From NCBI GenBank assembly GCA_013349495.1, contig DUZK01000001.1:1-56521 (forward strand): DNA of 56,521 bases. Direction: 5' to 3'. The notes under the pieces were generated by a model. It did no database searches and was not told the DNA's origin. It saw nothing but the letters and a program-made list of their open reading frames with translations. Positions 20,001-52,524 of this stretch are shown piece by piece. The number at the start of each line of letters is the position of its first letter. Position 1 is the stretch's first letter. The stretch comes from Deltaproteobacteria bacterium (GTDB lineage Bacteria > Desulfobacterota > Desulfobacteria > Desulfobacterales > SURF-15). A program made the position numbers and the translations under genes.

Positions 20001-23000
20001 CAGCTTTATGGATAACTTTTCTGTGTGGCGGGAGAAATTGCGGTTAGAGAAAAGACGATTTGGGAAGACGCTTTCCATAAACTGGCCGTTGTGGCAAGAC
20101 GGCGGAATGAGTATTGACCATAGGGCGGAAAAACTTCTGATACATGCGGCTGGAATTCGGCTTCTTAAAACACCTGACGGATTGGAAGCATTTTTCAGGG
20201 CTTTGGCCATGAAATTCAGCCAACTGACGGTGATAGACGGTATTCGCCGAAAAGTACGAGGTTTAGTTGTCGGCGACGGCCTTCGACGTCACGAATCCGA
20301 AGATATCGCCTCCCACTCGGTCGCACGCAAGGTTGAAGGAAAGCTGCTTCAAAATCTTCGTGAAGGATTGTTAAAAATGGCATCGGAGATCCTGAAAATC
20401 GAGGAGTCGGCCATCGATTTGGATGAAGATCTTAGTGCTTACGGTTTTGAGTCCATCACCTTCACTGAATTGGCGAATTGTATCAACGAGAAGTACAAAC
20501 TTGAAATTACGCCCACACTATTTTTCGAATACCCTTCGCTCCGATCGATCTCGCAATTCCTGTGTGAAACATATCAAAACAATATCTCAGAGGACTTTAG
20601 GAATGACGCTTCATTCATTTCACGTTCTGAATCCGATGAAGATACAGTTTTCGTCGAACCGATACAGAGAAACCGATTTCAAGTCCCCCATGACTCTGTG
20701 TACAAGCATCCATTGCCGGTTAATGTCCCGATAGCGATCATAGGAATGAGCGGCGTGATGCCCCAATCCGAAAATCTTGAGATCTTCTGGCAGCATCTTT
20801 ATAGAGGAAACGATCTGATCACGGAAGTGCCCAGGCATCGCTGGGATTGGGAAGCTTGGCATGACCATACGGCGGAAGAAGATATCAAGGCCATGGCCAA
20901 ATGGGGTGGTTTTATACCGGATGTGGATAAGTTCGATCCTCTGTTTTTTGGAATTTTACCCAGAGAAGCAGAACTGATGGATCCTCAACAACGACTCTTT
21001 TTGCAAACGGTATGGAATACCATAGAGGATGCCGGATATAAAATATCGACGCTTTCAGGCACCAATACCGGCGTATTCGTCGGAGTGGCTTCAAGTGATT
21101 ATGCCGAGATAATCCGTCAAAACGTTTCTAAGGTAGACCCCTATACATCAACCGGAATGGCGCATTCTGTTTTGGCAAATCGTATTTCCTATCTGCTCAA
21201 TCTGCATGGACCGAGTGAACCGATCGATACGGCTTGTTCCAGCTCTCTGGTCGCAATTCACCGAGCAGTGGAAGCCATCCACAGTGGAAGTTGTGAAATG
21301 GCCATAGCCGGGGGGGTCAATGCCATTTTAACCCCAACGTTGAATATATCCTTTGGAAGTGCCGGCATGCTGAGTAAAGACGGCCGTTGTAAGACATTCG
21401 ATAAACATGCGGATGGTTATGTCCGAGGTGAAGGGGTGGGGGCAGTGCTGCTGAAACCCTTGAACCGCGCTCAGACTGACGGTGACCATATTTATGGAGT
21501 GATTATCGGGACAGCCGTAAATCACGGAGGCCACGCCGCTTCGCTGACCGCTCCCAATCCGAAGGCGTTAGCTCAATTACTTATTCATGCATATAAAAGA
21601 GCGAATATCAAGATGGATACCGTAAGTTACATCGAAGCCCATGGAACAGGCACTGCTCTTGGGGACCCCATAGAAATCGACGGACTCAAACGTGCTTATG
21701 CTGAGTTGTGTAATGGCGAAGGAAAATCCCCAACCGTTCCCGCGCATTGCGGTCTGGGGTCGGTAAAGACAAATATCGGTCATTTGGAAACAGCAGCAGG
21801 TATCGCGGGTGTAATTAAAGTCCTGCTGTCGATGAAGCACAGGAAGCTTCCTCCCAGCATCAATTTCAAAGAACTCAATCCGTATATCCAACTTGAAGAC
21901 AGCCCATTTTACATTGTTACGGCTGCCCGCAATTGGGAACAATTGAGAGAAGATATCGGTCGTCCGATTCCGCGCCGCGCAGGGGTGAGTTCCTTCGGGT
22001 TCGGAGGAGCCAATGCGCATATTGTTTTGGAAGAATATGAAGAACCAGAGGTCAGCGGTCAGGGGTCAAGGGTCAGGGGTGAGCCGCAACTCATTGTAAT
22101 GTCGGCTAAAAACGAAGATAGACTTTATGCCTATGTAGAAAAGATGTTGGAATACCTGGACCAGGGGATGGACGTATCAGCTCCATCGGGTAAGGATGCA
22201 CCCCGTGAAGCAGTTTTTAAAAAAGTGTTGATTCTCATCGCTGATATCTTAAGGGTGGGGGAAGAGGATATCAATCCGGAGGAGCCTTTCGAAGAATACG
22301 GATTTGATCAAATCGGATTGACGGGTTTGGCAGAAAAGATAAGCGAAAGGTATTCATTAAACATCACTTCTTCCTTATTCACGGAATATTCGTCAATCAG
22401 CAAGTTGGCACAATACCTTACCCAGCATCGAGCATCAAGTCTAGAGCATCAAGCATCCAACGCTACCGATCTTTCTCTTTCCGATCTCGCATATACCCTG
22501 CAGGTAGGTCGGGATGCCATGGAAGAGCGGCTGGCTGTTGTGGTTTCAGACCTGGAGGAGCTTAAAGAAAAGCTAAAACGATTTTCAAACGGTGAACACG
22601 ATTATGAGGATTTCATTCGCGGCAATGCGAAGGCAATCAAAAGTAAATCCGATACTCTCGATCAAGGCAGTGCCGGAAGAGAATCTGTTCCCATCTTAAT
22701 TAAAGACCGTGAGCTCGGCAAACTCGGTCAGTTATGGGTTAACGGTTTCGATATCGACTGGACATTACTGTATCCGAAACAACAGCCTCAGCGCATATCC
22801 ATTCCCACATATCCCTTTGCAAAAAAGCGGTATTGGGTTCCAGAAAGGCAAGCGACTAAGGTAAAGCCACAAGTGGTGGATGAAACGGGTGGAATGAAGC
22901 AGATTCAAAAGCCCGCTGTTCTGGTTTTTCAACCGATATGGGAAAAAACGAGAATAGAATCGGCTCAACCGATTGCCCGAAACATACTTCTATTTGACAC

Positions 23001-25683
23001 AGATGCCCGTCGTCGAAAAGCCTTTCAACTGCGGTTCAATGGGGATATCATCCTGGTTCGACCCGGACAGCAATTCACAAAGAAGGACAGTCTTACCTAT
23101 GAGGTGAATCCTACAAACCCGAAGGATTTTATCAGCTTACTTTCGACATTGGCAAACAGGAAAAGGCCCATAGTTTCTGCAATACACCTATGGGCTCTCA
23201 GTAAAACCAGAAAGGGGGGCCTCGATTCATTTTTCCAGGGGGCAACGGGGAACCATACCGCTGGGTTGACCGAGGCAGAGAGCGACCTCCGTGCCGGTGT
23301 GTATCCGATTTATTCTTTTATCAGAGCTGTTTCCGAAACCCATTTTGACTCAATCACACAACTTTTATTCCTATACTATGGTGAAGAAGAGAAGTCGAAT
23401 CCGCTTTTTGATGCGATTTCCGGATTCTCCAAATCGCTTGGCTTTGTTCTGCCGAAACTATCGATTCGGACGGTTCGAATAGCTTCAGATATCGGGAAAA
23501 GAACGGTAGCGGATATTGCTGTGCAAGAATCGAGCATTGGGGATCGGGATTTCAAGGCTGAGATCCGATATGAGCATGACGATAGATATGTAAAGGCCTT
23601 CCATCCGCTGGGTCTTATTGACAAGAAAAAGATATCGACGCTGCGGAAGGAAGGTGTGTATTTGATCACCGGCGGTGCCGGCGGATTGGGATTGATTTTC
23701 TCCCGGTATCTGGCTGAACAATACCGGGCCAGGCTGGCCCTAACCGGCCGATCGCCGTTAAAAGGGAAAAGAAAAGAGAGCATCGATGCGCTTCGGCGAT
23801 CAGGCGCCGAGGTGTTGTACCTTCAGGCCGATGTATCCAGTGAGAATGAGATGCAGCAGGTTGTCCGAGAGGTCAAGAATCATTACGGGTCGTTAAACGG
23901 TGTGATTCATGCGGCTGGAATCTCTTCTGCAAACCTCATTACACAAAAAGAAATGGCCGAATTTGAATCTACCCTGAGCCCCAAGATAAAGGGGACCCTT
24001 GTCTTGGACAAAGTTACCCGGGCTGAATCGTTGGATTTCTTTGTTTTATTTTCTTCCACTTCGGCGATTCTGGGTGATTTCGGACAGTGCGATTACGCCG
24101 TGGCCAATCGATTCATAGATGGCTATGCCCATATGAGAGAGGCGCTTAGGAGAATCCGAGACCGACAGGGACGGACCGTTGCCATCAACTGGCCATTGTG
24201 GCGGGATGGCGGACTTCATATGGATTCGGAAGCGGAAGCTTTTTATTTTCAGACATCTGGGATGTCTTATCTTGAAACAACAGAGGGACTTCAAGTTTTT
24301 GAAGACATTCTCAAATCTGATCCTACCCAGGCAATATTGATATCCGGAGACAAGACCCGCATCGAGCAATTCTTGGGGATCAAGGAAAGAGGAAAAATGC
24401 CTGATTCCAGAAACGGTGATCGGTTCATTCCGACCGTTGCGTTGAATGATGCAGATCATTCCCATTACCTGGAGACAAACACCCGCAATATTGCATCGTC
24501 CATCATAAAGGATGAAACAGGCGAAATAGAACAAAAGCTTCAAATGGAGTTATTGAGCATCGTTTCGGAAATTTCAAAAATCGACGAAAATGAAATAGAC
24601 CCGGGAACAAGTCTGACACAATACGGCTTCGCATCCATCAGCTTTACCGAGTTTGCCTTTCGGATCAATGATCAGTTCCAAGTGGAAGTTGGGTCGACCC
24701 TGTTTTTAGACTATCCTTCCATCCGCGCCCTTTCCAGTGTTCTGTTGGAGAAGCATGAAGATAAGATCAACTCATTTTTTCGGAGCCGATTAACCGATAA
24801 TTCTTATCCATCCAAATCGCTGGTACCCATCCAATCAGGCGGAACGCGTATGCCTCTCTTCTGTGTACCCGGCGCTGGCGGAAATGGTCATTATTACTAT
24901 CAGTTATCCCGGTGCTTGGGGGAAAACCAACCGTTCTTCACATTTCTATCTTTGGGATTAGACGGAAAAACCGAGCCCCATAAGAACATCCCAGAGATGG
25001 CTTCCTATTACATTGATAGTATCTTTACGATTCAGGAGAAGGGACCGTACCTTTTAGGGGGTCACTCCCTGGGAGCCAGAATCGCTTATGAAATGGCGCT
25101 TCAATTACTGAAACAAGGGCACAGAGTGGAATTGCTTGTGGTTTTTGACGAAGTCGCTCCGGTGGCCCGAGCTAAAGATGAAGAGTATATCGATGATGAT
25201 GCCTATCTGATATGCGAGGCTGCCGCAGCCCCGGAAGCATTCAACGGTATCGATCTCAAAATATCTTACGATGATATTGAAAATCTGACCTGGGAAAAAC
25301 AGATAAACTACATGAAGGAAAGGTATCAAAGTGCCGGCTTATTTCCTCTAAACGGTACATTGGGGCAATTCAGAGGAATGATGGATGTCTATAAAGCCCA
25401 AAGACGCTTGAATTATATCCAACCCCCCAAGGCCAATCCTTTTAGGATCGTTTTTTTCCGATCAGACGAATCCAATCGGGACATCTATGAGAAGCCGGAA
25501 ATTCAAGAGGATGCGTCATGGGGTTGGAGCCGGTTTTCAGCCCATCCCGTTGAAATTTTCGAGACGCCCGGAACCCATAACACCATGTTGGCCGATCCGA
25601 ATGTTCGATCCGTGGCAAAACGCTTGAAAGACGTGCTTGCAGAAGCGATAAACGAAAGCCAATCTGATGAGTACATACCGTAA
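14080..25683 (+). CDS. AT-less modular PKS, terminal subunit: N-terminal docking helix-KR-ACP-KS-DH-KR-ACP-KS-(pseudo-ACP)-KR-ACP-TE
   Basis: The ATG lies 4 nt after the stop of the upstream PKS gene. It has two KS with the full Cys-His-His set, 1 DH, 3 KR, 3 ACP and a C-terminal alpha/beta-hydrolase TE (GGHSLG). There is no AT motif. Confidence 0.95.
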   Translation: MKTEALTQNQIIDMVERRQIAPKEGLKLLKRLQVNGGRALSDSSDLFFCRPVWKEMADGFSSAMRRVSGDILVIYENEAVDKILEDRLGSDDFGQARFIFTKTGTRFEAKGPGRFTIRPDHPDDYNRLLQALNKDSGPPRTILHLLSNDPYTGEENSLKAQIGAGLYSLFFLTRALLALKPTDRVQIIYFYQEPSGRSQPQYAGCSGFARTLGLESRTVAIKTVSIPDIQKIAALSIPRILAVEDVEIRFRGDRYLVRALEESIPDDASDPIGPLKENGVYLLTGGAGGLGFVFAEHLAKQVKAKLILTGRSPLGDEKALKIEALRGLGSEVIYIQADVSRQEAAHALIAQARSRFNRINGVIHCAGIVRDNLIINKPVDDLSAVIAAKVFGTLHMDAATKDEPLDFFVLFSSVSAVTGNMGQADYAYANSFMDHFVSVREQSRRESRRTGKTISINWPLWREGGMRVDAQTEIFLAQTAGMKPLNRMSGLNAFSLCLASSHNRWMVAAGNRGQIRRALIGKPDHAGLNRPDAGVRKRDFLSALGNDVLSIASDILKIDTQDIDWNEDIGEYGFDSISFTEFANRINRQFRLDITPAVFFELPSIGAFTEFLAGNYTDQLSDYYRADSTVLTAPEPKRPAVEGGENLEPFIADRFQLPAVEPVHAGAEDRSIAVIGMSGAMPGSEDPEAFWKHLVAGDDLITEVPKDRWDWRRFELDSTVDTDQIKWGGFMPDVDKFDCLFFGISPREAELMDPQQRLFMETVWKTIEDAGYAPSSLSGTRTGLFVGVATSDYVELVRDRAAEIEAHAATGMSHCILANRISYLLDIHGPSEPIDTACSSSLVAIHRAVEAIRSGSCDAAIAGGVNVILAPSLTIAFGKAGMLSPDGRCKTFDARADGYVRGEGAGAVLLKPLSRAVADGDHIYAVIRGTAENHGGRAKSLTAPNPNAQADLLVDAYENAGVAPDSVTYIEAHGTGTRLGDPIEINGLKKAFEALCKKQGRTLSSESVCGIGSVKTNIGHLETAAGIASVIKVLLALKHRKLPASIHFRERNPYIDLTGSPFYIVSETRDWEPLKDAAGGWLPRRAGVSSFGYGGSNAHIVLEEYQEEAFSVQRSGFSVEPQLIVLSAKNEDRLKEYAERMVKFLDSTLNSEHLTLNLTDFAYTLQVGREAMEERLALVVSDVEELQAELEKYARGDSDTSKLMRGNARTLRGTSEQLVEGRAGAAFVRILMEDRELGKLGQLWNSGFDIDWTLLYPQKPPQRISLPTYPFAKERHWLPKMVESPSEMGSGFHGVNIEQRAKGFGYEGKFHPLLDANISTLKEQRFTTQFTGKEFFLADHVLAGQKTLPGVAYLEMALASGMAAAEEETRKLINIVWASPITVPDKPQNVFISLYPETADDKVGFEVTTLKEEGQRQVHAQGKLIFESRSSIVDEVIDIDSIQTRCTERVSGPVCYQAFQSSGLHYGPAFQTIQELFRSDNEALSLLVLPEELGGSFRNFCLHPSLMDGALQTVGALMSSSTIGTPHVPFALGEVIWIRPLTEKCYAHVTSAEYSVDPNLKKFDIDITNEDGQVLVRMKDLSIRALGPSEDKYETMYFSGQWESSPSNTPPATQFLYGNLLLLDTDETRQNALCEQLKTDVLLVKPGKSFRMINPNTFSIHPGNPDDYRRLMKALKKNDRLPEHIVHLWSQENFTDDAGVLNTQIERSFYSILHLSQALLEFKSRDKIQLLYIYPEPPEDPQPHYAAIAGFAKTIRLEIPRFQYKTIALPDFSHVADVVSAEFQTDEGVEIRYQDGRRQMRHLIEYKPIPDDVSPESLLRENGVYILTGGTGGLGLIFAEYIARQVKTKLVLTGRSPLNEEKSAKIQILNDLGAEAVYIQADISNLEDVKGLIAHVKSRFNDIRGIIHCAGVIRDASIAKKTPEEAASVLAPKVYGTLHLDKETGSEPLDFFVLFSSTTAVLGNAGQSDYAYANSFMDNFSVWREKLRLEKRRFGKTLSINWPLWQDGGMSIDHRAEKLLIHAAGIRLLKTPDGLEAFFRALAMKFSQLTVIDGIRRKVRGLVVGDGLRRHESEDIASHSVARKVEGKLLQNLREGLLKMASEILKIEESAIDLDEDLSAYGFESITFTELANCINEKYKLEITPTLFFEYPSLRSISQFLCETYQNNISEDFRNDASFISRSESDEDTVFVEPIQRNRFQVPHDSVYKHPLPVNVPIAIIGMSGVMPQSENLEIFWQHLYRGNDLITEVPRHRWDWEAWHDHTAEEDIKAMAKWGGFIPDVDKFDPLFFGILPREAELMDPQQRLFLQTVWNTIEDAGYKISTLSGTNTGVFVGVASSDYAEIIRQNVSKVDPYTSTGMAHSVLANRISYLLNLHGPSEPIDTACSSSLVAIHRAVEAIHSGSCEMAIAGGVNAILTPTLNISFGSAGMLSKDGRCKTFDKHADGYVRGEGVGAVLLKPLNRAQTDGDHIYGVIIGTAVNHGGHAASLTAPNPKALAQLLIHAYKRANIKMDTVSYIEAHGTGTALGDPIEIDGLKRAYAELCNGEGKSPTVPAHCGLGSVKTNIGHLETAAGIAGVIKVLLSMKHRKLPPSINFKELNPYIQLEDSPFYIVTAARNWEQLREDIGRPIPRRAGVSSFGFGGANAHIVLEEYEEPEVSGQGSRVRGEPQLIVMSAKNEDRLYAYVEKMLEYLDQGMDVSAPSGKDAPREAVFKKVLILIADILRVGEEDINPEEPFEEYGFDQIGLTGLAEKISERYSLNITSSLFTEYSSISKLAQYLTQHRASSLEHQASNATDLSLSDLAYTLQVGRDAMEERLAVVVSDLEELKEKLKRFSNGEHDYEDFIRGNAKAIKSKSDTLDQGSAGRESVPILIKDRELGKLGQLWVNGFDIDWTLLYPKQQPQRISIPTYPFAKKRYWVPERQATKVKPQVVDETGGMKQIQKPAVLVFQPIWEKTRIESAQPIARNILLFDTDARRRKAFQLRFNGDIILVRPGQQFTKKDSLTYEVNPTNPKDFISLLSTLANRKRPIVSAIHLWALSKTRKGGLDSFFQGATGNHTAGLTEAESDLRAGVYPIYSFIRAVSETHFDSITQLLFLYYGEEEKSNPLFDAISGFSKSLGFVLPKLSIRTVRIASDIGKRTVADIAVQESSIGDRDFKAEIRYEHDDRYVKAFHPLGLIDKKKISTLRKEGVYLITGGAGGLGLIFSRYLAEQYRARLALTGRSPLKGKRKESIDALRRSGAEVLYLQADVSSENEMQQVVREVKNHYGSLNGVIHAAGISSANLITQKEMAEFESTLSPKIKGTLVLDKVTRAESLDFFVLFSSTSAILGDFGQCDYAVANRFIDGYAHMREALRRIRDRQGRTVAINWPLWRDGGLHMDSEAEAFYFQTSGMSYLETTEGLQVFEDILKSDPTQAILISGDKTRIEQFLGIKERGKMPDSRNGDRFIPTVALNDADHSHYLETNTRNIASSIIKDETGEIEQKLQMELLSIVSEISKIDENEIDPGTSLTQYGFASISFTEFAFRINDQFQVEVGSTLFLDYPSIRALSSVLLEKHEDKINSFFRSRLTDNSYPSKSLVPIQSGGTRMPLFCVPGAGGNGHYYYQLSRCLGENQPFFTFLSLGLDGKTEPHKNIPEMASYYIDSIFTIQEKGPYLLGGHSLGARIAYEMALQLLKQGHRVELLVVFDEVAPVARAKDEEYIDDDAYLICEAAAAPEAFNGIDLKISYDDIENLTWEKQINYMKERYQSAGLFPLNGTLGQFRGMMDVYKAQRRLNYIQPPKANPFRIVFFRSDESNRDIYEKPEIQEDASWGWSRFSAHPVEIFETPGTHNTMLADPNVRSVAKRLKDVLAEAINESQSDEYIP
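14220..15490 (+). other. KR3 ketoreductase (B-type signature); completes the split module KS4-DH // KR-ACP
   Basis: GVYLLTGGAGGLG (about 14920-14955), HCAGIVRDN, YAYANSF, INWPLWREGG. Confidence 0.85.
15700..15930 (+). other. ACP4
   Basis: IGEYGFDSISFTEFANRI; Ser codon 15805-15807. Confidence 0.9.
16093..17397 (+). other. KS5 ketosynthase domain
   Basis: IAVIGMSGAMPGSE...DTACSSS (Cys 16591-16593)...EAHGTGTRLGDP...KTNIGHLETAAG. Confidence 0.9.
17406..17440. repeat. Post-KS5 heptanucleotide tandem repeat
   Basis: GTTCAGT GTTCAGC GTTCAGG GTTCAGC GTTGAGC; it coincides with the GC-content break. Confidence 0.9.
17521..17555. repeat. Second-linker degenerate heptanucleotide repeat, KS5 linker
   Basis: ACTTTGA ACTCAGA ACATTTA ACTCTGA ACCTAAC, just before DFAYTLQVGR. 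Confidence 0.55.
18010..18840 (+). other. DH3 dehydratase domain
   Basis: FHPLLDANIS, LADHVLAGQKTLPG, GLHYGPAF, HPSLMDGALQ. Confidence 0.85.
18860..20115 (+). other. KR4 ketoreductase domain (B-type signature)
   Basis: GVYILTGGTGGLG (about 19549-19587), HCAGVIRDA, YAYANSF, INWPLWQDGG. Confidence 0.85.
20355..20580 (+). other. ACP5
   Basis: LSAYGFESITFTELANCI; Ser codon 20452-20454 (GFES variant of GFDS). Confidence 0.85.
20730..22038 (+). other. KS6 ketosynthase domain
   Basis: IAIIGMSGVMPQSE...DTACSSS (Cys 21235-21237)...EAHGTGTALGDP...KTNIGHLETAAG. Confidence 0.9.
22050..22084. repeat. Post-KS6 heptanucleotide tandem repeat
   Basis: GGTCAGC GGTCAGG GGTCAAG GGTCAGG GGTGAGC. Confidence 0.9.
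22210..22424 (+). other. Second carrier-protein-like insert (pseudo-ACP) in the KS6 flanking linker, Ser replaced by Gln
   Basis: AVFKKVLILIADILRVGEEDINPEEPFEEYGFDQIGLTGLAEKISERYSLNITSSLFTEYSSISKLAQYL sits at the same insertion point as in the KS1 linker. The Ser position is Gln (caa 22309-22311). Confidence 0.7.
22425..22459. repeat. Second-linker heptanucleotide repeat, KS6 linker
   Basis: GCATCGA GCATCAA GTCTAGA GCATCAA GCATCCA, after the pseudo-ACP and before LSDLAYTLQVGR. Confidence 0.8.
22920..24225 (+). other. KR5 ketoreductase domain (A-type-like)
   Basis: GVYLITGGAGGLG (about 23651-23689), HAAGISSANL (no Asp), YAVANRF, INWPLWRDGG. Confidence 0.85.
24540..24765 (+). other. ACP6
   Basis: LTQYGFASISFTEFAFRI; Ser codon 24634-24636. 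Confidence 0.85.
24820..25680 (+). other. TE chain-release thioesterase domain
   Basis: MPLFCVPGAGGNGHYY, GGHSLGARIAYE (Ser codon 25066-25068), ETPGTHNTML (catalytic His). Confidence 0.9.
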
Positions 25684-25689
25684 CCCTTT

Positions 25690-27498
25690 ATGAGGAAGTT
25701 GATTATGAATGGCACAACAACGTCTCGTTCGGAAGATAAGACCCTTCGCCGGATTTATATTGGACACGCCAACACATTTCACGATCCGTCGATCGCCATT
25801 ATAGAAGGTGACCAGATTTTTGCAGAGGGGATCGAGCGGCACATCCAGTGCAAGCGTGCCTGGGAAAACCTCCGGCTATGGTATTCCTGGCGTGCCGTTC
25901 GTAAAGCCTTGAATGACCTGGGACTTTGGCCGGTAAAGGATGCGGATGTGGTCAGCGTCACCAGTTGGGATTACGACCTGCTAAAGGAAGTGGTAGAAAA
26001 CCGATTGGTGGAGTTTGACGGCCCTGGCGGTGTCTGCATGTTGTCGCATCATATGGAGATGGAACCGATATTCAATAACCAACTGGCATGGATTCTTCGG
26101 TCCTATCCGGCCAATTTCAGCGACCAGCCCCATGAACTGGCTCCCGAGATGTTTCAGGATTCGCACAATATTTCCATTCAGATAAAGATGACCAACCACC
26201 ACCTGGCCCATGCGGCCACTGCCGTCTACACCTCTCCCTTTGACGAGTGTATGGTGATGATTATCGACGGCTATGGGGAATGGACCACCAACAGCTTTTA
26301 TCATTTTCATGACAACCGGTTCGATCTGATCCATCAGCAGGGTATACACAGCCTGGGGTTAATGTATTCCTCTATCACCGAAATTTGTGGATTCAGCAGT
26401 CTGGAGGGGGAAGAATGGAAAATCATGGGGCTTGCCGCCTATGGGGCATTTAATAATGATATTTACCAATTCTTCAATGAGCGCATCGTCTTCGACGGCC
26501 TGAGCTTTGAGATCATATACGACCCGGAAATCTACTTTAAAACGCTCATGTCGCTGATCGGCGGAATGCGGCATCCGGATGATCCGGATGTCATGAAGAT
26601 CGCCGATCTGGCCCATTGCTTCCAGCGCTTTTTCGAAGAAACGGTGGTCAAGCTGGCTAAGGCAGCCGGAGATTTGTGCCTTTCAAAGAATCTGGCCTAT
26701 GCCGGCGGATGCGCACTCAACTCTTCCGCCAACGGGAAGATACTGGAGAACACGAATTTCGAACGGCTCCATATTCCCAGTGCTCCGGCCGATGACGGCT
26801 GCTCGCTCGGGGCCGCCTTTTACGAGAAATACGCCGCCCAAAAGGATGGGAATAGGTCTGTTGCGGTGATGTCGCCCTACCTGGGCAGCATGATCGATAT
26901 TGAGCGGCTGGAAAAGATTCTGTCATTTAAAGGCATCAAATACCGCCACCTGTCGGATGAGAATGAATTGTGTGAGGAGGTGGCGATTCTGCTTGACGCG
27001 GGCAATATTGTGGGCTGGATACAGGGAAGGGCGGAATTCGGCCCCCGGGCGTTGGGCAACCGATCCATTATCGCAGATCCCAGACCGGCGGATATGAAGG
27101 ATCGGATCAACAGCCGGGTGAAATTCCGGGAAGACTACCGGCCGCTGGCCCCCTCTATTCTCCATGAGTTCGGAGATGAATATTTCGAAGGCTATCAGGA
27201 AAGCCCCTATATGGAGCGCACCCTGAATTTCCGTGATGCGGTCAAAGACAAGGTGCCGGCCGTGGTCCATAAGAACGGGACCGGACGACTTCAGACCGTC
27301 AGAGAGGAGTGGAATCCCCGCTATTATCGATTGATTCACGCTTTTTACGAAAAAACCGGCATACCTCTGGTATTGAACACCTCCTATAATGTCATGGGCA
27401 AGCCGATTGCTCACAGTGTTGAGGATGCCATCACCGTGTTCTTCACCACCGGGTTGGATTATCTTGTGATCGGCAACTACATCTTGATGAAAGGATAG
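25690..27498 (+). CDS. Carbamoyltransferase (NodU/CmcH family)
   Basis: Signature blocks: HHLAHAATAVYTSPF, GRAEFGPRALGNRSIIADPR, KFREDYRPLAPS, VHKNGTGRLQTV, LVLNTSYNVMGKPI. The ATG at 25705 has GAGGAAG 6 nt upstream and may be the real start. The gene begins 6 nt after the PKS stop. Confidence 0.9.
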   Translation: MRKLIMNGTTTSRSEDKTLRRIYIGHANTFHDPSIAIIEGDQIFAEGIERHIQCKRAWENLRLWYSWRAVRKALNDLGLWPVKDADVVSVTSWDYDLLKEVVENRLVEFDGPGGVCMLSHHMEMEPIFNNQLAWILRSYPANFSDQPHELAPEMFQDSHNISIQIKMTNHHLAHAATAVYTSPFDECMVMIIDGYGEWTTNSFYHFHDNRFDLIHQQGIHSLGLMYSSITEICGFSSLEGEEWKIMGLAAYGAFNNDIYQFFNERIVFDGLSFEIIYDPEIYFKTLMSLIGGMRHPDDPDVMKIADLAHCFQRFFEETVVKLAKAAGDLCLSKNLAYAGGCALNSSANGKILENTNFERLHIPSAPADDGCSLGAAFYEKYAAQKDGNRSVAVMSPYLGSMIDIERLEKILSFKGIKYRHLSDENELCEEVAILLDAGNIVGWIQGRAEFGPRALGNRSIIADPRPADMKDRINSRVKFREDYRPLAPSILHEFGDEYFEGYQESPYMERTLNFRDAVKDKVPAVVHKNGTGRLQTVREEWNPRYYRLIHAFYEKTGIPLVLNTSYNVMGKPIAHSVEDAITVFFTTGLDYLVIGNYILMKG

Positions 27499-27503
27499 GT
27501 AGC

Positions 27504-28784
27504 GTGAAAATAGCACTCATCACAATGGGGACCTGGGGAGATGTGATGCCGTTTCTGGCATTGGCCCGGGGGTTGGAAAAGGCCGGTTATGACATCACTT
27601 TTGCCACGGTGATGGATTTTGAAGACCGGGTTCGGGAACTTGGCTTTGCCTATGTGCCCATTCATTTCAGTTTTCACGAATATGTGCATTCCGATGAGTG
27701 CAAGGCCTCCCTTGCCGGCAGTATCACGGCGACCCGACGGCATCAGAAGAATTTTTTCAGAAAACGGCGGCAGATGCTCGAAGACGCCTGGAAAGCAGCC
27801 CGGGGGGCCGAAGCGATCATTTTCAACCCGGTGGCGTTTCCGGCCTACCACATGGCCGAGAAACTGAAGATTCCCTGTATCATGACCTCGAGTACCCCCT
27901 GTTTGTCACCGACCCGAGCGTTTCCTTATATGTTTGTGACCTCGAATCATCTGGGCGGTTTCTTAAACCGGTTGACATACGAGTTTCATCGGCTGGGCAC
28001 CAACAGCGAGCGTAAAATCGTATCTCAGTGGTGTCGGGAAACGCTGGACACGAACCCCCCTCGACCGTTTATGAATTATCTCCGGATGAATGGACGTCGC
28101 GTTCCGATCTTATATTTATACAGTCCCAAAATGGTACCGAGTCCTTCAGACTGGCCGAAAACGACCCTGGCAAGCCATTATTGGTACCTGGATCAAGAGA
28201 GCCGATGGCAGCCGCCGGCCGGGTTGGAAGCGTTTCTTTTCCGGGGACCGGCACCCGTCTACGTGGGGTTCGGGAGTATGGTGGGAACAGATCCTGAAGC
28301 GATGACCCGGATTGTGGTCTCAGCCCTTGAAACATCCGGAGAACGGGGAGTCATCTGTACCGGATCGGGAGCCATGGCCAAACCGAATAAGCCGCCGGAA
28401 ACACTCTACTTCATAGATTCCATTCCCCATGACTGGATATTCCCGCGGGTCAAGGCGGTGGTTCATCATGCCGGCGCCGGTACGGTCTGGTCCGGTCTTC
28501 GATACGGCAAACCGACGCTGGCCTGCCCCATCGCCGTGGACCAATGGTTCTGGGCCAGACGCATCCATCAACTTGGGGTGGGGCCCCCTCATCTGTCCCA
28601 AAGACCCTTGAAGAAGTTTACCGCAGACAAACTGGCACAAGGCATTCAGACCATGGTGGACGACAAAGCGATGCAGCAACGGGCAGAGGCCTTGGGAAAG
28701 GAATTGGAAAAGGAAGACGGGGAAGGGAAGGCGGTTGAATTTATCAATCGTCAAATCGAAACCTGGCAGAATTATTTAACTTGA
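27504..28784 (+). CDS. Family-1 glycosyltransferase (MGT/UDP-glycosyltransferase type)
   Basis: N-terminal block MKIALITMGTWGDVMPFLALARGLEKAGYDITFAT. C-terminal nucleotide-sugar block HHAGAGTVWSGLRYGKPTLACPIAVDQWFWA. GTG start. Confidence 0.85.
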   Translation: MKIALITMGTWGDVMPFLALARGLEKAGYDITFATVMDFEDRVRELGFAYVPIHFSFHEYVHSDECKASLAGSITATRRHQKNFFRKRRQMLEDAWKAARGAEAIIFNPVAFPAYHMAEKLKIPCIMTSSTPCLSPTRAFPYMFVTSNHLGGFLNRLTYEFHRLGTNSERKIVSQWCRETLDTNPPRPFMNYLRMNGRRVPILYLYSPKMVPSPSDWPKTTLASHYWYLDQESRWQPPAGLEAFLFRGPAPVYVGFGSMVGTDPEAMTRIVVSALETSGERGVICTGSGAMAKPNKPPETLYFIDSIPHDWIFPRVKAVVHHAGAGTVWSGLRYGKPTLACPIAVDQWFWARRIHQLGVGPPHLSQRPLKKFTADKLAQGIQTMVDDKAMQQRAEALGKELEKEDGEGKAVEFINRQIETWQNYLT

Positions 28785-29608
28785 AACTCTTTGCGCTCAG
28801 CGATCTTCATCTCGATTACAAAATCAATCACGATGCCCTGGCGGCGATTCCGGAATATCCCGATGACTGGCTGGTTTTAGGGGGTGATATCTGCACCGGT
28901 TATGAAGATCTTCGGTATGCACTGACGATCCTCTCCAAACGGTTTTCCCGCCTGCTCTGGGTTCCCGGCAACCATGATCTCTGGTCCCGAATCGGCGGCA
29001 TCCGGGGAAAGGGGGAGGAGAAGTATTGGAAACTGATCGGAATCTGCCGGGAATTCGGCGTCTTAACACCAGAAGACCCGTATCCCTTATGGAACGGGGA
29101 AGGGGGTGCGCATTACCTGGTTCCCCTTTTTCTGCTCTATGACTACAGTTTCAGACCCGGTCACATCCCCACGGAACAGGCCGTGGAATGGGCCAATGAG
29201 AGCGGGATCATGTGCACGGACGAGTATCTGCTGGATCCTTCGCCCCATGAATCCCGTATCGCCTGGTGCCATGAGCGCTGTGAGTATTCTGAGGAACGGA
29301 TCAGGAAAATCTCGGGGGAGACACCCCTTGTCCTGATCAATCATTTTCCTTTGAGAGAGGATCTTGTCAGGCTGGTTCGTATACCGCGGTTTTCGATCTG
29401 GTGCGGAACCCGCAGGACCGAATCCTGGCACATGCAGTTCAATGCATCGGTGGTCATATCCGGGCATTTGCACATACGGAGCACGAATTACAGAGCCGAC
29501 GTCCGGTTTGAAGAAGTCTCTCTGGGATATCCGAAAAACTGGAACCAGCGACGCGGGATAGCTCATTATCTGCGTCAAATATTACCGTCACCCGATCCCA
29601 GGTATTGA
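28781..29608 (+). CDS. Calcineurin-like metallophosphoesterase
   Basis: Metal-ligand blocks SDLHLD, GGDI, VPGNHDLW, INHFP, SGHLH. The TTG start overlaps the GT stop (TTGA, 28781-28784). Confidence 0.8.
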   Translation: MKLFALSDLHLDYKINHDALAAIPEYPDDWLVLGGDICTGYEDLRYALTILSKRFSRLLWVPGNHDLWSRIGGIRGKGEEKYWKLIGICREFGVLTPEDPYPLWNGEGGAHYLVPLFLLYDYSFRPGHIPTEQAVEWANESGIMCTDEYLLDPSPHESRIAWCHERCEYSEERIRKISGETPLVLINHFPLREDLVRLVRIPRFSIWCGTRRTESWHMQFNASVVISGHLHIRSTNYRADVRFEEVSLGYPKNWNQRRGIAHYLRQILPSPDPRY

Positions 29609-29609
29609 T

Positions 29610-30362
29610 ATGGTCAATAAGACTCAGGAGTTTAGAATTGGATTTGATACCGGAAACAGATCACAAGAGCCCCTCGCGCTTGTGTTCCCGAGCGGATTGA
29701 AGACGGTTGCCGATCTCATGCCCGCCTTTCACCAACTCTTCGATCGGATCATTGCTTTGGAAGTAAATGGTAAGCCGATTACCTGCGGTCCGGAGTGCGG
29801 AACCTGCTGTCGGCAATTGGTTCCAATTTCCCTGCCTGAAGCGTTTTATCTCAAATCCATACTGAACGAGCTGAAACCGAAGAGATGTAAACGGGTCAAA
29901 CACCGGATTGCGGCAATCCTGGAAAAGGTAAAAGATGCAGGGCTTCTTTCAGCTGTCTTGAATCCCAGGGAGAACATGGAGGTGGATACCGCGTATTTTA
30001 AACTCGGGTTGCCCTGCCCCTTTTTGGAGGAGAATTCATGCAGCATTCACCCGTTTCGGCCCCTGGCTTGCAGGGAATACCTGGTCACATCGGATAAGCA
30101 GTACTGTCGTAACCCCCATGGCGATGAAGTGAACCGGATCCGGATCAAGCGAAACATGGCCGCAATGCTGGCGGTCTTTGCCTCCGGGCTATATCAGGTA
30201 CCCAAGGCGCCGATTCCGCTGTTTTATTTTATGGTGTATTCCGAAAAGATTGAAAGACCGGGCCAGCTGAAATGGCCGGCCCGATCGATTCTCGATAGAT
30301 TTCTAAGTGGTCTGGTGAAGTTAAATGACGAGAACCTGCAGATTTCCATTCAGGATACTTGA
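29610..30362 (+). CDS. YkgJ/UPF0153-family cysteine-cluster protein (putative Zn/Fe-chelating domain; family includes flagellin N-methylase FliB)
   Basis: TCGPECGTCCRQLVPI and CPFLEENSCSIHPFRPLACREY match the CxxCxxCC ... CxFL..C.I...RP..CR pattern of this family. Confidence 0.75.
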   Translation: MVNKTQEFRIGFDTGNRSQEPLALVFPSGLKTVADLMPAFHQLFDRIIALEVNGKPITCGPECGTCCRQLVPISLPEAFYLKSILNELKPKRCKRVKHRIAAILEKVKDAGLLSAVLNPRENMEVDTAYFKLGLPCPFLEENSCSIHPFRPLACREYLVTSDKQYCRNPHGDEVNRIRIKRNMAAMLAVFASGLYQVPKAPIPLFYFMVYSEKIERPGQLKWPARSILDRFLSGLVKLNDENLQISIQDT

Positions 30363-30374
30363 GATACTCAGACC

Positions 30375-32447
30375 ATGAGACAAACATATTCGAATTCAAG
30401 CTTTGATCCCCTAACCGAAGACCTCCTCAGGTATCTGGAACGTGTCCATGATGTGTACCTGCCCCGACGACTCCTCGATTTTGCCATAGATAAAGAAATG
30501 CAGCTGGCTTTTCAGAAGACCTGCGAGCGTGCCGTTAAGGGCCGAAACCGGGTGCACAGCCTTCATATGGGTATCGGTGCCCCTTTCACCGCCATGCTGG
30601 CCGTAAGGGCCGGGGCATCTCGGGCGACCATCTGTGAGAAATGGCCTCATCTGGCCGCCGTTTATCAGACGCTCATAGACACAAACGGAATGGTTGATAC
30701 GATTCGCGTCATTAACAAGACCTTGAGCGAAATGAGACTAAAGGAGGATTTTGCGTTTCCACCCAATTTGCTGATTCTGGATTCTATGGGCGCCGGATTT
30801 TCCGGAAACAGCTTCGGTGCCGCCATCCGGTTTGCCAGAAAGGAACTGCTTTCACCGGATGCCGAAATCATTCCCAAAGGCGCATCCCTGTTTGCAGTCC
30901 CCATGGAATTGCGGACCGGTTTAGTCTGTGGTTTCGATTTGAACGCTTTTAACAGGTACCGGTGGACTCCGATCTATGAGGAGATCCGGTTGGATCAGCA
31001 AGAATACAAACCCCTGGCTGACCCGTTTGTTTGCGTTGAGTTTGATTTTTTGGACCCTTTAATCCCTGAAGACAAGACCTTTGCGGTTACCCCTGAACAT
31101 TCCGGTATATGGAATGCCACGGCCTGGTGGTATGATCTGGTGCTCGATGAGGAGACAGTCCTCGCCACCGATCCTCAAAGCGGGACTTCTTCTCGCCGGG
31201 TCCAGGCATTACAGTATCTGGAAAAGGAGGTTCATGTCACCAATGGGGAAGTTTTTGAAATCCGTGTCAGGCATGACGGCAGACATATCCGCTTTGAACC
31301 GGAGAGTACCCATTCGGATGATTCGGTAATATCCACGGTCCGACTGGGACCCGCTGTTCCGCACTGGCACTTTCCCATGATTGCTGATGAAACCCGTAAT
31401 GACAAATATGAAGAAGCCATTGTTCGTGCCGTCCGTGGCGTGGAAAACCCCAGGGCCCTTGATATCGGCACCGGCACCGGTCTGCTTGCCATGATGGCCT
31501 CCCGGGCCGGGGCGGCCGGGGTGACCGCCTGTGAGATGATTCCGCACATGGCAAAAACCGCCGGAGAGATATTGGAGACGAACCGGTTTGGGAATAAGGT
31601 TCATCTTGTAGCCAAATCTTCTTTCGATATAGAGATACCCCTGGATATGAAGGAGAAGGCGAACATCCTGATCTCTGAAACAGTGGACCACAGCCTTCTG
31701 GGAGAAGGGTTTTTGGCAGCGCTTCAGCATGCCAGGGAGTTTCTCCTGGTAGACGACCCTGCCATCATCCCGGCAGGAGCCCTGGTTTATGCCTCAGGTG
31801 TCGAGATCAGAACGGAAGACGTCCGGGGATTCGACTTTACCCCGATAAACCTGCTCCGGTTGAATCACTACACCTGTATGGATTTGAACCGGGTGGAACA
31901 CCGCAGGTTGACAAATGAAAGCGAGGTTTTCCGGTTCGATTTCTATCAGCGAGATTTTAAACCCACCCAGAAGGTGTTTGAACTTCCGGTAATCAATGAC
32001 GGTAAATGCAATGCCATTGCTTTTTGGTATCGCCTGATGCTGGACAAAGAGACGTTTATCGATACCGGGCCGGATTCGGGAACCATTGCATGGCAACAGG
32101 CAGTAGTTTTCCTGGACCGTGAGGTTAACATCCAAAACGGAGATGTATTGCCCATTATTGGTTATTATGATCAACACATGCTTGGTTTCAGCATCGATAC
32201 CATGGGATGCATGCTTAACGGAATTTCCATGGATTCAGGAGATCGCCCCTTCTGGTTTAAACGCCTGATGGAGGAGGAAACAGATTTTCAGTCCTATACA
32301 AAGGAGATAAGCGAGCGTGTTCGTAACGCTGGAGAAGGGGCTGCAAATCAAGCCTTGAAAAATATAGCGGACAATATGGATAAATTGGGTTTTGATCCGT
32401 TGATAGTCTCGGATTTTATTATTCAGATTGGATATCACTTGCAATGA
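30375..32447 (+). CDS. Tandem two-module PRMT-fold (protein-arginine-methyltransferase-like) SAM-dependent methyltransferase; N-terminal module degenerate
   Basis: The C-terminal module has HFPMIADETRNDKYEEAI, LDIGTGTGLLAMMASRAGA (GAT at 31461) and ILISETVDHSLLGEGF (Glu codons 31677 and 31704, double-E spacing). It also has TIAWQQAVVFL at the THW-loop position. The N-terminal module is a clear paralogue with degraded motifs (HMGIGAPFT, LILDSMGAGFSGNSF). Confidence 0.75.
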   Translation: MRQTYSNSSFDPLTEDLLRYLERVHDVYLPRRLLDFAIDKEMQLAFQKTCERAVKGRNRVHSLHMGIGAPFTAMLAVRAGASRATICEKWPHLAAVYQTLIDTNGMVDTIRVINKTLSEMRLKEDFAFPPNLLILDSMGAGFSGNSFGAAIRFARKELLSPDAEIIPKGASLFAVPMELRTGLVCGFDLNAFNRYRWTPIYEEIRLDQQEYKPLADPFVCVEFDFLDPLIPEDKTFAVTPEHSGIWNATAWWYDLVLDEETVLATDPQSGTSSRRVQALQYLEKEVHVTNGEVFEIRVRHDGRHIRFEPESTHSDDSVISTVRLGPAVPHWHFPMIADETRNDKYEEAIVRAVRGVENPRALDIGTGTGLLAMMASRAGAAGVTACEMIPHMAKTAGEILETNRFGNKVHLVAKSSFDIEIPLDMKEKANILISETVDHSLLGEGFLAALQHAREFLLVDDPAIIPAGALVYASGVEIRTEDVRGFDFTPINLLRLNHYTCMDLNRVEHRRLTNESEVFRFDFYQRDFKPTQKVFELPVINDGKCNAIAFWYRLMLDKETFIDTGPDSGTIAWQQAVVFLDREVNIQNGDVLPIIGYYDQHMLGFSIDTMGCMLNGISMDSGDRPFWFKRLMEEETDFQSYTKEISERVRNAGEGAANQALKNIADNMDKLGFDPLIVSDFIIQIGYHLQ

Positions 32448-32516: not shown

Positions 32517-33311
32517 ATGCAACATATGGGGAGCAAACTAAATTTAAAAACGAATGAAATCCATCTGTGGTTTGCGTTTCCGGATGAAATTCGGGACCCG
32601 AATCTGCTTTCTGAATATAAGAAACTGCTTACTCCGGAAGAGGGGAAAAAACAGCAGCGATTCTACTTTGAAAAACATCGCCATCAATATCTGGTGACCC
32701 GTGCCCTGGTTCGAACAACGCTTTCCCGGTACACGGGCATTCCGGTTTCCGATCTCAGATTTGATCGAAACAAATACGGCAGACCGGAGCTCGTGGTCGT
32801 TCCCAAAGACTTTCCCATTCGGTTCAATCTGTCTCATACAGACGGACTCATTGCCTGTGCAGTTGTGCTGAATCAGGACATAGGGGTGGATGTTGAAGAC
32901 ATGACGCGCAGGGAGATATCCCTTGAAACTGCGGATCGTTTTTTTTCCAAAACCGAGGTTCGTGATCTCCATCAAGTGCTTGAGAGCAAAAAACGAGATC
33001 GATTCTTTGAATATTGGACGCTTAAGGAGTCGTATATTAAAGCGCGGGGCATGGGATTGTCCTTACCGTTGGAACAATTCAGCTTTCACCTATCGGAAAA
33101 TGAATCGCTGAGAATTTCTTTTGATCCAAGGTTGTCCGATGATCCGGATCGCTGGCGGTTTTGGCTGCTGAAACCCACCGGGCGTCACAAAGCAGCAGTT
33201 GCAATTTGTGGAGAAAACCGGGGCGCCTATGAATTAACGATTCGGAAAGCGGTTCCGTTGTCGGCAGCGGAAGATTTCCCATGCGCCATTGTAAAACACT
33301 CGGATATATGA
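32517..33311 (+). CDS. Sfp-type 4'-phosphopantetheinyl transferase
   Basis: RFNLSHTDGLIACAV, IGVDVEDM, FFEYWTLKESYIKARG. Confidence 0.9.
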   Translation: MQHMGSKLNLKTNEIHLWFAFPDEIRDPNLLSEYKKLLTPEEGKKQQRFYFEKHRHQYLVTRALVRTTLSRYTGIPVSDLRFDRNKYGRPELVVVPKDFPIRFNLSHTDGLIACAVVLNQDIGVDVEDMTRREISLETADRFFSKTEVRDLHQVLESKKRDRFFEYWTLKESYIKARGMGLSLPLEQFSFHLSENESLRISFDPRLSDDPDRWRFWLLKPTGRHKAAVAICGENRGAYELTIRKAVPLSAAEDFPCAIVKHSDI

Positions 33312-34691: not shown

Positions 34692-36251
34692 TTATTTAAT
34701 CACCACCTTCTGATTTAAATATCGATAGGCATCCTCCGCCAATGTTTTTTTCCAACCCGGTTGGTATGTGCCGAATCGGGCGGGGTCTGCCGCCGACAAG
34801 TTTTCAAATATTGCACCGCAGTGCGCATCGCCCACCGTGAGTTTGGCCAATCGATCAACATCGCTTGAAGTGATTCCCCCGCCAGAAAGGATTTCGAAGA
34901 TACCGGCCGGCAGCAGGTAGGGTTTTAATTCCGGCTGGGTCATGATTCCTGCCATACCGGGAAGGTAGACATCTGTCTTTACATGTAAAACCGCCTGTGC
35001 GACGTCTTTCAAACCCCCATCGATCAAGGCATGGCAGACCGCACGCTGTATGACGGGCAGATAATCGGACTGGAAACATCCGCCGATACAGACAACACCC
35101 CGGGCCAAAGCAAACGATAGAAAACATGAAAAAACCGACGGCAGGAGATTGTTCTGTCGTAATTGCTCTATGATGATATCCGGAGAATGGGCGATTTCGA
35201 CCGTCTTCCCGCGACCACCGATTCCTTTAAGCGTGCATTGCCCTCGGCCGCCGGGTGTTAATGTCAACGGTACTTTTTTCCCCCACTCATCGATCCACCA
35301 GAAGAAAATCGTGCCTGTGGGATCGATTGTGTTAGGGCGTTTCTTTGTGTGGTTTTCCTTTACATGTGTTTTCAGGTTCTTAAGGTGCCAGCACCCTGAG
35401 ATTCCATCCAACTGAGTAATGACTTGATCCCGGACGGTCGGATTAAACAGAACATGGCTCACCAAGCTGTCCTGATTGGATAAATCCATTACCATTAAGT
35501 TTCGTACGATGCTCTCGATTTCAATATAAATCAGCTCCGGTATCGCTTGAAGATCTGCATACAGGCGTTTCCAGATGCGATTGTTTAATACGACCACCTG
35601 CTGTGAATATGACGAGAGATTCAGTATATCCTCTGATAGAAATTCTTCCCTTAAGACTTTTTTCACCGATCGATGAAACTTTTTCGATATGAGCCCGGTC
35701 TTTTCTATCTGTCCCAGAGAGGAAATGGATTGATCGATCATGGAAGAACTAAACGGAGGCGCACAACTTGAAGCCGTCCGTTTCAATCTATCGGGAAAAA
35801 TAGGCAGCCTCACCGGCATCAGGTCCAGATTTTCGGGCTTAACCTTGTAGAGCAGCAATCCTCGGGGATAGGTACGATTATTCAGGGGCACGTTTCCAAA
35901 AGAAAACGCGACCACTGCTCGATTGTGTTTTCTTCCCAACAGTGCATGGAGTGCAAAGAGAATATTCCCCTGGATGAAAATGGAGTAGGACTCGATTCCG
36001 GTATGGCTGCTTGTGAGCACAATCGGCAATCGGGTCAATTCTTCCCTGGCCTGATTCGCTATGAACTCACCGAGCAGGGGCTTCAGGAAACGATATACCG
36101 TTGACAACAAATCTTCTCTTGGCTGATACGATGAATCCGGATGCTTCAGTATTGAATTCAGGTATTCCGGAAGGGGCCTGTTTTCATGTTGCAGTAAAAC
36201 CCGGTGAACCGCGGGCAAATGTCGACAGATTAAATGAAGGTATTGCTGCAT
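34692..36251 (-). CDS. Hypothetical 519-aa soluble protein, no family recognised
   Basis: Long ORF with SD GGAGAC 5 nt upstream of the ATG. It overlaps the upstream GNAT gene by 22 nt (operon). No motif I can name. Confidence 0.6.
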   Translation of the reverse strand: MQQYLHLICRHLPAVHRVLLQHENRPLPEYLNSILKHPDSSYQPREDLLSTVYRFLKPLLGEFIANQAREELTRLPIVLTSSHTGIESYSIFIQGNILFALHALLGRKHNRAVVAFSFGNVPLNNRTYPRGLLLYKVKPENLDLMPVRLPIFPDRLKRTASSCAPPFSSSMIDQSISSLGQIEKTGLISKKFHRSVKKVLREEFLSEDILNLSSYSQQVVVLNNRIWKRLYADLQAIPELIYIEIESIVRNLMVMDLSNQDSLVSHVLFNPTVRDQVITQLDGISGCWHLKNLKTHVKENHTKKRPNTIDPTGTIFFWWIDEWGKKVPLTLTPGGRGQCTLKGIGGRGKTVEIAHSPDIIIEQLRQNNLLPSVFSCFLSFALARGVVCIGGCFQSDYLPVIQRAVCHALIDGGLKDVAQAVLHVKTDVYLPGMAGIMTQPELKPYLLPAGIFEILSGGGITSSDVDRLAKLTVGDAHCGAIFENLSAADPARFGTYQPGWKKTLAEDAYRYLNQKVVIK

Positions 36252-37051: not shown

Positions 37052-37052
37052 A

Positions 37053-52523: not shown

Positions 52524-52524
52524 G

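Follow-up and report, generated by a model that had tools for sequence, protein, structure and literature searches.

Protein arginine methyltransferases (PRMTs) have been studied almost entirely as eukaryotic enzymes of chromatin and RNA processing. What, then, is a PRMT-like gene doing among the tailoring genes of a bacterial polyketide synthase (PKS)? The question is raised by a 56,521-nt stretch of DNA from a Deltaproteobacteria bacterium (contig DUZK01000001.1, positions 1-56,521, forward strand; referred to as the window throughout), in which one open reading frame (ORF) encodes, within a 690-aa protein, two PRMT-fold modules in tandem. The original prediction, made by eye from the letters, had described a PRMT7-like protein with a dead first module and had proposed N-methylation either of the metabolite, at a guanidino or amino group such as that of a guanidino starter unit, or of a pathway protein; the reading frame it gave is correct, and every peptide it quoted is present in the translation. 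Judging from its sequence, the gene is a rare bacterial relative of PRMT7 and PRMT9, in which a degenerate copy of the module precedes an apparently intact catalytic one. We propose, with a probability of roughly 0.45, that the protein N-methylates a unit of the polyketide pathway that derives from arginine or bears a guanidino group. A metabolite substrate is thereby given a slight preference over the other candidates, a protein substrate being nearly as likely.

A tandem PRMT-fold protein with a degenerate first module

The two halves of the protein are homologous: a BLASTP comparison of aa 1-318 with aa 319-690 aligns 267 residues at 33% identity (E 6e-44), far beyond chance, which bears out the internal duplication noticed by eye. 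Each half also matches PRMTs separately, and both modules can therefore be assigned to the PRMT fold by sequence rather than by visual resemblance. Among PDB sequences, the best match is PRMT9 (6pdm/7rbq, E 7e-40) over aa ~328-600, and the same region matches mouse PRMT7 (1e-28) as well as trypanosome PRMT7 and PRMT1 (~1e-19 to 1e-20). Searched alone, the N-terminal half retrieves PRMT7 of T. brucei (3e-13) and of mouse (9e-11), and also aligns with the second module of PRMT9 in its barrel (4e-7). In Pfam, the PRMT-specific beta-barrel/oligomerisation domain PRMT_C (PF22528) is matched in two stretches with 53.7 bits against a cut-off of 27; the generic methyltransferase matches around aa 340-430 all stay below threshold, and no TPR match is found. 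The NCBIfam scan of the protein likewise returned no family, only generic methyltransferase matches below threshold.

The residues expected of a PRMT catalytic centre lie in the second module (Table 1), and their conservation was read from an alignment of 15 full-length homologues (A1). The WHFPMIADETRNDKY block, counterpart of the PRMT N-terminal helix ahead of motif I, has seven invariant positions (W331, H332, F333, M335, D338, R341, N342). In motif I, ALDIGTGTGLLA, which by its sequence would bind S-adenosylmethionine (SAM), all three glycines G365, G367 and G369 are invariant, as is the post-I glutamate E387 (ACE387). The double-E loop, SETVDHSLLGEG, keeps the E-x8-E spacing and is invariant at S434, E435, D438, H439, L441, L442, G443 and E444; its SE435TVDHSLLGE444G stretch aligns with TETVDAGLFGEG of PRMT9. 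The hallmarks listed in the original prediction for the C-terminal unit (the WHFPMIADETRNDKY block, motif I and the E435-x8-E444 pair) are thus present and invariant across the family. Its counterpart of the PRMT THW loop, TIAWQQAVVFL, holds in part: W573 and Q575 are invariant, but the histidine is replaced by alanine, at a position where PRMT9 has cysteine (C-W). SAM motif I with its post-I acid, the E-x8-E pair and the PRMT beta-barrel, which mark membership in the PRMTs, are all found in this module, which is also the better conserved of the two (45-71% identity to the window protein among homologues, versus 32-56% for the N-terminal module).

In the N-terminal module, the degradation of these motifs seen by eye was confirmed by the alignment. 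Motif I reads HMGIGAP in the window protein and Q-T-E-R-G-S in a clade of Verrucomicrobia and Kiritimatiellae, the double-E positions are occupied by D139 and an asparagine, and the tryptophan of the THW-like loop is missing. Across the family the first glutamate position holds D, N or H, and the second N, Y, H, S, D, K or C. We considered this module as a second active site and rejected the idea, motif I and the double-E positions being unconserved within the family; the substitutions suggest that it is probably a pseudo-enzyme scaffold. An 80-residue tail (aa 611-690) is common to all members, with P625, W627, G672 and D680 invariant. It has no Pfam match, and the last 86 aa of the protein have no significant match among PDB sequences.

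An AlphaFold2 model built on the same alignment (mean pLDDT 87.7, pTM 0.87) is poorly defined only at the N terminus and in the inter-module linker (residues 312-323), and displays the strand pattern of the PRMT beta-barrel in both modules. The Foldseek comparison with the PDB that had been suggested as a check returned mouse and C. elegans PRMT7 and PRMT9 as top whole-chain matches (E 1e-41 to 1e-30; TM 0.58-0.69 over ~650-680 columns), including mouse PRMT7 (4c4a; E 7.5e-41, TM 0.63/0.67, 678 columns), C. elegans PRMT7 (TM up to 0.69) and PRMT9 (E ~4e-39, TM ~0.6). Single-module enzymes such as PRMT1 and PRMT3 span only half of the chain. Since the whole-chain matches are PRMT7 and PRMT9, the prediction is that this single chain folds as a pseudo-dimer, as PRMT7 and PRMT9 do.

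Resemblance to PRMT7 and PRMT9, and closer bacterial relatives

With PRMT9, a eukaryotic type II enzyme (6pdm, 7rbq, 8rbk), the window protein has in common the WHF.M..D..RN..Y block, motif I, the ETVD..L.GEG double-E loop, a residue other than histidine before the loop tryptophan and, according to the model, the organization as a tandem two-module pseudo-dimer. PRMT9, however, begins with TPR repeats and has its active module first and the degenerate one second, whereas the window protein lacks TPR repeats, starts with the degenerate module, carries the additional helical tail, and is bacterial and encoded in an operon. The best whole-chain structural match is PRMT7, a eukaryotic type III enzyme (4c4a, 3wst, 3x0d; TM 0.63-0.69, 660-680 columns), which the window protein resembles as one chain mimicking a PRMT homodimer with, apparently, a single active site. 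In a table of motifs, PRMT7 homologues nevertheless have intact motifs in the first module and a degenerate second one, the reverse of the order found here. Scored with an active-module profile, the degenerate C-terminal modules of PRMT7 reach 20-58 bits versus 100-251 bits for the N-terminal modules of the window family, which are therefore much less diverged from active modules than those of PRMT7.

A neighbour-joining tree of 68 modules, with weak bootstrap support, places the C-terminal modules of the window family among bacterial single-module PRMT-like proteins, and the PRMT7 C-terminal modules on a separate long branch; the window modules do not group with the corresponding modules of PRMT7. 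Orthology to PRMT7 or PRMT9 was rejected on the inverted module order, the absence of TPR repeats and this tree. By sequence, the protein is PRMT7/9-like in architecture and an orthologue of neither. The "PRMT7 layout" of the original prediction thus stands as a resemblance in sequence and predicted structure, with the dead module indeed in first position, but not as a relationship: the order is the opposite of that in PRMT7.

Among bacterial proteins, the catalytic module is most closely related to single-module TPR-PRMT proteins, or proteins annotated as "L11 methyltransferase", from Rhodospirillales, Ferrovibrio and Rhodobacteraceae. They are 33-40% identical to the C-terminal module and have the same motifs, including the HW loop, but consist of one module only, often behind N-terminal TPR repeats, and no PKS context was seen for them. 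A search for conserved neighbours in 76 of their loci found synteny within genera only.

Further tandem arrangements were observed. Several marine picoeukaryotes encode tandem PRMTs of ~650-680 aa that, unlike canonical PRMT7 and PRMT9, have the degenerate module first (P0033, P0035, P0038, P0053, P0056, P0057, P0060, P0062, P0066 and P0077; loci L165-L168); neighbouring genes for tubulin, TFIID (TFIID-18kDa), BCCIP and CFAP91 identify these contigs as eukaryotic. The N-terminal modules of the bacterial and picoeukaryote degenerate-first proteins group together in the tree with a bootstrap of only 15/50, and cross-scores of module-specific hidden Markov models do not discriminate, as degenerate PRMT7 modules also favour the N-module profile. 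In four proteins of 840-960 aa (P0102, P0112, P0114, P0127), N-terminal TPR repeats precede a tandem PRMT whose SAM motif lies in the second module, an arrangement that resembles PRMT9 with its module order inverted. A contig of an uncultured bacterium (L011:10001-12642; also L103 and L104) encodes a tandem in which identity to the active module of the window protein is 39% for the first module but only 20-23% for the second, suggesting that the PRMT7-like order, active module first, also occurs in bacteria.

Operon position and contexts of the family

The gene lies, as originally described, within a PKS tailoring operon, tightly packed behind the PKS genes (Table 1). From the thioesterase-terminated PKS gene to the phosphopantetheinyl transferase gene, the successive gaps are 6, 5, -4, 1, 12 and 69 nt. 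A scan for promoters and terminators inside the operon found nothing above shuffled expectation, the best promoter-like site lying after the phosphopantetheinyl transferase gene. The PKS modules in view contain only KS, KR, DH and ACP domains, apart from the terminal thioesterase, with RhiE-type linkers; because AT domains are absent, the PKS is of the trans-AT type. No aminotransferase, methyltransferase or non-ribosomal peptide synthetase (NRPS) domain was found in the modules in view, the start of the assembly line being outside the window. The gap of 12 nt to the upstream gene was given correctly in the original prediction. Its attribution of that gene to the FliB family was not upheld: only the generic PF03692 is matched, without any NCBIfam family at E<=0.001, and the gene is absent from the otherwise syntenic locus L001, described below.

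Table 1. Coordinates in the window of the tandem PRMT-like gene, its modules and motifs, and the genes of the surrounding operon.
Feature	Coordinates	Strand	Basis
trans-AT PKS gene 1, 4654 aa	111..14075	+	domain search
trans-AT PKS gene 2, 3867 aa, ends in thioesterase (TE)	14080..25683	+	domain search
Carbamoyltransferase, 6 nt past PKS stop	25690..27498	+	Pfam, NCBIfam
Glycosyltransferase, macrolide-glycosyltransferase (MGT) family	27504..28784	+	Pfam, NCBIfam
Calcineurin-like metallophosphoesterase	28781..29608	+	Pfam
CxxCxxCC (PF03692) protein, 12 nt upstream of PRMT-like gene	29610..30362	+	Pfam E 2.6e-6
Tandem PRMT-like protein, whole ORF, 690 aa, ATG start	30375..32447	+	translation, Pfam, homologues, model
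N-terminal PRMT-fold module, degenerate, aa 14-312	30414..31310	+	half-vs-half BLASTP, family alignment, PDB matches
Inter-module linker, aa 313-325, low model confidence	31311..31349	+	pLDDT <50 at residues 312-323
C-terminal PRMT-fold module, putatively catalytic, aa 326-610	31350..32204	+	Pfam, PDB matches, family alignment
WHFPMIADETRNDKY block, aa 331-345	31365..31409	+	alignment
Motif I ALDIGTGTGLLA, putative SAM binding, aa 361-372	31455..31490	+	alignment
Double-E loop SETVDHSLLGEG, aa 434-445	31674..31709	+	alignment
THW-like loop TIAWQQA, aa 570-576	32082..32102	+	alignment
C-terminal helical extension specific to family, aa 611-690, three predicted helices	32205..32444	+	alignment, model
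Sfp/HetI-type 4'-phosphopantetheinyl transferase (PPTase), last operon gene	32517..33311	+	Pfam, NCBIfam

Among NCBIfam families, the glycosyltransferase comes closest to Rgt, Mgt and OleI, enzymes of inactivation or self-immunity, and the gene is duplicated in the syntenic locus L001 (L001:265-2852), which may point to glycosylation for self-resistance or in a pro-drug strategy.

The carbamoyl group is the only nitrogen function that the operon visibly installs, and this bears on whether the methyl acceptor has to be a guanidine at all. The enzyme might instead act on the carbamate nitrogen produced by the neighbouring carbamoyltransferase, or on a hydroxyl or an amine, and PRMT-like methyltransferase domains of the lyngbyapeptin NRPS have indeed been assigned to tyrosine O-methylation (PMC10127204). 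We consider such an acceptor improbable: both glutamates of the double-E loop, D438 and the tryptophan loop are invariant in the 15 homologues, as expected for binding of a cationic guanidinium, and a PKS-linked homologue described below (L081) has no carbamoyltransferase within 10 kb.

The tandem family is rare. The database search yielded 14 other full-length homologues of 645-701 aa, with 36-61% identity at 98-99% coverage, and a profile search of 1.84 billion representatives at 50% identity found ~8 full-length clusters above 560 bits. Hosts include metagenome-assembled genomes (MAGs) of a Desulfobacteraceae bacterium, a "Deltaproteobacteria" bacterium, Verrucomicrobia and Kiritimatiellae, and a MAG fragment of a gammaproteobacterium, with a GC content at the locus of 38-71% across the family. 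The Desulfobacteraceae locus (L001) has the gene order of the window (the end of a carbamoyltransferase gene, two glycosyltransferases, the metallophosphoesterase, the PRMT-like gene and the PPTase), at 59-88% amino acid identity. In an 8.8-Mb genome (L081), 19 nt separate the homologue from the trans-AT PKS gene ahead of it, which ends in a TE; this PKS shares only generic KS similarity (37-42%) with that of the window, and the cluster is therefore a different one. In L082 the homologue follows an enoyl-CoA hydratase (ECH) gene. Directly downstream of both homologues lies an ORF of 276 aa (L081:12119-12949) or 249 aa (L082:12068-12817), 83% identical between the two, for which no Pfam or PADLOC match was found; in L081 it is followed by a 1103-aa protein with an FGE-sulfatase domain. 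Apart from this ORF and the L001 synteny, a search across the loci of the tandem family found no recurring partner gene.

Two Kiritimatiellae loci (L059 and L092) have a truncated trans-AT KS fragment and several transposases nearby. Transposases accompany several homologues, GC is heterogeneous across the window cluster and the contexts of the family are very diverse, all of which would fit a passenger, or a catalytically inert scaffold, brought in by rearrangement and without a role in polyketide biosynthesis. This explanation appears very improbable to us. The gene order is conserved with the Desulfobacteraceae MAG, the intergenic gaps are tight, and the catalytic residues are invariant among homologues as diverged as 36-61% identity in hosts of 38-71% GC, which argues for purifying selection on activity.

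Other members of the family are found in settings of another kind. In L083/L084 and in L085, an ATPase of the ABC type resembling AriA/HEC-01A and a small ORF precede the homologue, which begins after ~40 nt. The ATPase and small ORF look like a PARIS/HEC-01-type phage-defence pair, with which the homologue may make up a three-gene module. These loci (L083:7933-9959, L085:8291-9963) encode distant full-length homologues (P0006, P0015) in hosts of ~71% GC, the small ORF having 178-196 aa. No biosynthetic genes are in view in L002, L003, L086-88, L089, L090, L169 and L170. In total, three of the ~14 distinct contexts are clear PKS operons, of two unrelated cluster types, and two contain PKS remnants or accessory genes. 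PKS adjacency is strongly enriched versus chance and extends to at least two unrelated clusters, yet it concerns a minority of the family contexts.

Several features of the rest of the window were noted. GC falls abruptly from ~57% to ~46% near 18 kb, within the second PKS gene (region 16000-20000), is ~52-53% in the tailoring genes and ~44% after 32 kb; the drop may mark recombined or imported modules. On the minus strand at 36230-39620, a GNAT-domain ORF overlaps by ~60 nt with the start of an 855-aa MFS transporter that has a ~460-aa N-terminal extension, and downstream of this pair lies a 519-aa ORF lacking Pfam matches (34692-36251); all three may serve the cluster in export or resistance. 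A 1096-aa ORF (42841-46131, minus strand) combines a region resembling TLC ATP/ADP transporters with HEAT repeats and a C-terminal cyclic-nucleotide-binding domain. Near the window end, an IS21-type IstB ATPase (52525-53307) adjoins a 498-aa ORF without Pfam match, possibly a transposase, and a CHC2 zinc-finger ORF (52017-54754, minus strand), which indicates remnants of mobile elements.

Candidate substrates and meaning of the finding

The strongest competitor of a metabolite substrate is a true protein arginine methyltransferase, acting on a pathway protein, on the cellular target of the polyketide as a means of self-resistance, or within a conflict system, the linkage to PKS genes then reflecting co-regulation. 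We regard this as a serious possibility, if a tentative one. The catalytic core aligns over its full length with the protein-methylating module of PRMT9 (stretch E 1.5e-23), the model retains the whole pseudo-dimer architecture used for protein substrates, and proteins could dock onto the helical extension conserved at the C terminus. Most family members lie outside biosynthetic gene clusters (BGCs), two of them ~40 nt after the PARIS/HEC-01-like ATPase and small-protein pairs, and the operon's glycosyltransferase belongs to a family of macrolide self-immunity and inactivation, so that resistance functions may be mixed in with the tailoring genes. On the other hand, no candidate substrate protein is conserved beside the gene across contexts, the metabolite is the normal substrate of methyltransferases encoded among BGC tailoring genes, and the gene is placed directly after a TE gene in two unrelated trans-AT PKS clusters.

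A broader version of the protein hypothesis, which we consider unlikely, would see here a bacterial protein-arginine methylation enzyme from a rare degenerate-first tandem PRMT lineage that was recruited repeatedly into conflict systems, its architecture possibly being common to the marine picoeukaryote tandem PRMTs by descent or transfer. If this were true, its substrate in trans-AT PKS clusters would be an arginine residue, located either in the cellular target of the toxin or in a pathway protein, and the methylation would serve self-protection or control; beside the PARIS/HEC-01-like ATPases, the enzyme would have a role in phage defence.

Our slight preference for a guanidino unit of the polyketide pathway is based on the location of the gene among the tailoring genes of two unrelated trans-AT clusters and on two precedents. 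For relatives of PRMTs in bacteria, a role as peptide methylases encoded in secondary-metabolite operons has been described (Aravind et al., 2011; summarized in PMC3417536), and in streptozotocin biosynthesis, the BGC-encoded SznE/StzE N-methylate the guanidino group of free L-arginine (PMC11705231). The latter are a precedent by function; as described, their architecture and cluster type differ from those of the window protein. The former are encoded in antibiotic-like operons, as here, and in that summary are partnered with NRPSs, dioxygenases and amine oxidases or embedded as domains in NRPSs, a description from which the window protein is set apart by being free-standing and tandem, with the degenerate module first, in trans-AT PKS operons.

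Several observations weigh against this proposal. The histidine of the THW loop is replaced by alanine; no domain or gene introducing a guanidino group or an amine is visible in the window, which does not extend to the loading end of the PKS. Biosynthetic genes are absent from view in about nine of the 14 family contexts, and in two cases the homologue comes directly after a defence ATPase pair of the AriA/HEC-01-like type, for which reasons we state the metabolite substrate conditionally. The original prediction had named an occurrence of orthologues mainly outside biosynthetic clusters as a point that would speak against it, and the distribution goes part of the way in that direction, given the three clear PKS operons. 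Lastly, members with and without PKS linkage do not differ in their catalytic motifs, which points to one shared type of substrate, not necessarily a polyketide.

How might methylation of a guanidino unit proceed? In PRMTs, the two glutamates of the double-E loop clamp the guanidinium, and the methyl group of SAM is transferred to a terminal nitrogen; the active site requires an arm of the partner subunit. PRMT7 and PRMT9 make mono- or symmetric di-methylarginine. By analogy, the C-terminal module would be the enzyme, binding SAM through motif I and the post-I Glu387, holding the guanidinium between E435/E444 of the double-E loop and the Trp573 loop, and passing the methyl group to a terminal guanidino nitrogen. 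Both the LLGEG catalytic loop and the residue in place of the loop histidine are similar to those of PRMT7/9, so that a guanidine methylated once, or twice in symmetric fashion, would be the likely product. The N-terminal module most likely supplies the obligatory "partner subunit", and the three-helix tail may recognize the substrate. The gene would be co-transcribed with the tailoring genes of the trans-AT PKS, and the unit could be methylated as a free molecule, while carrier-bound or in the finished product.

The general idea that bacterial PRMT relatives occur in secondary-metabolite operons is already published, as the same summary makes clear (PMC3417536). Our searches of the literature on bacterial PRMTs, on PRMT-like enzymes in trans-AT and other PKS clusters, and on prokaryotic PRMT7/9 found only the Aravind review and the NRPS-embedded example, and in the literature searched we found no description of a trans-AT PKS operon with a linked tandem PRMT that is free-standing and has its modules in the inverted order.

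With a catalytic core close to that of PRMT9 and a predicted single-chain pseudo-dimer, the protein would offer a simple, operon-encoded model for the working and the origin of tandem PRMTs. It also flags two unrelated trans-AT PKS clusters as probably having methyl-guanidine-bearing products, or else as containing an unprecedented arginine-methylation step that would serve control or self-resistance.

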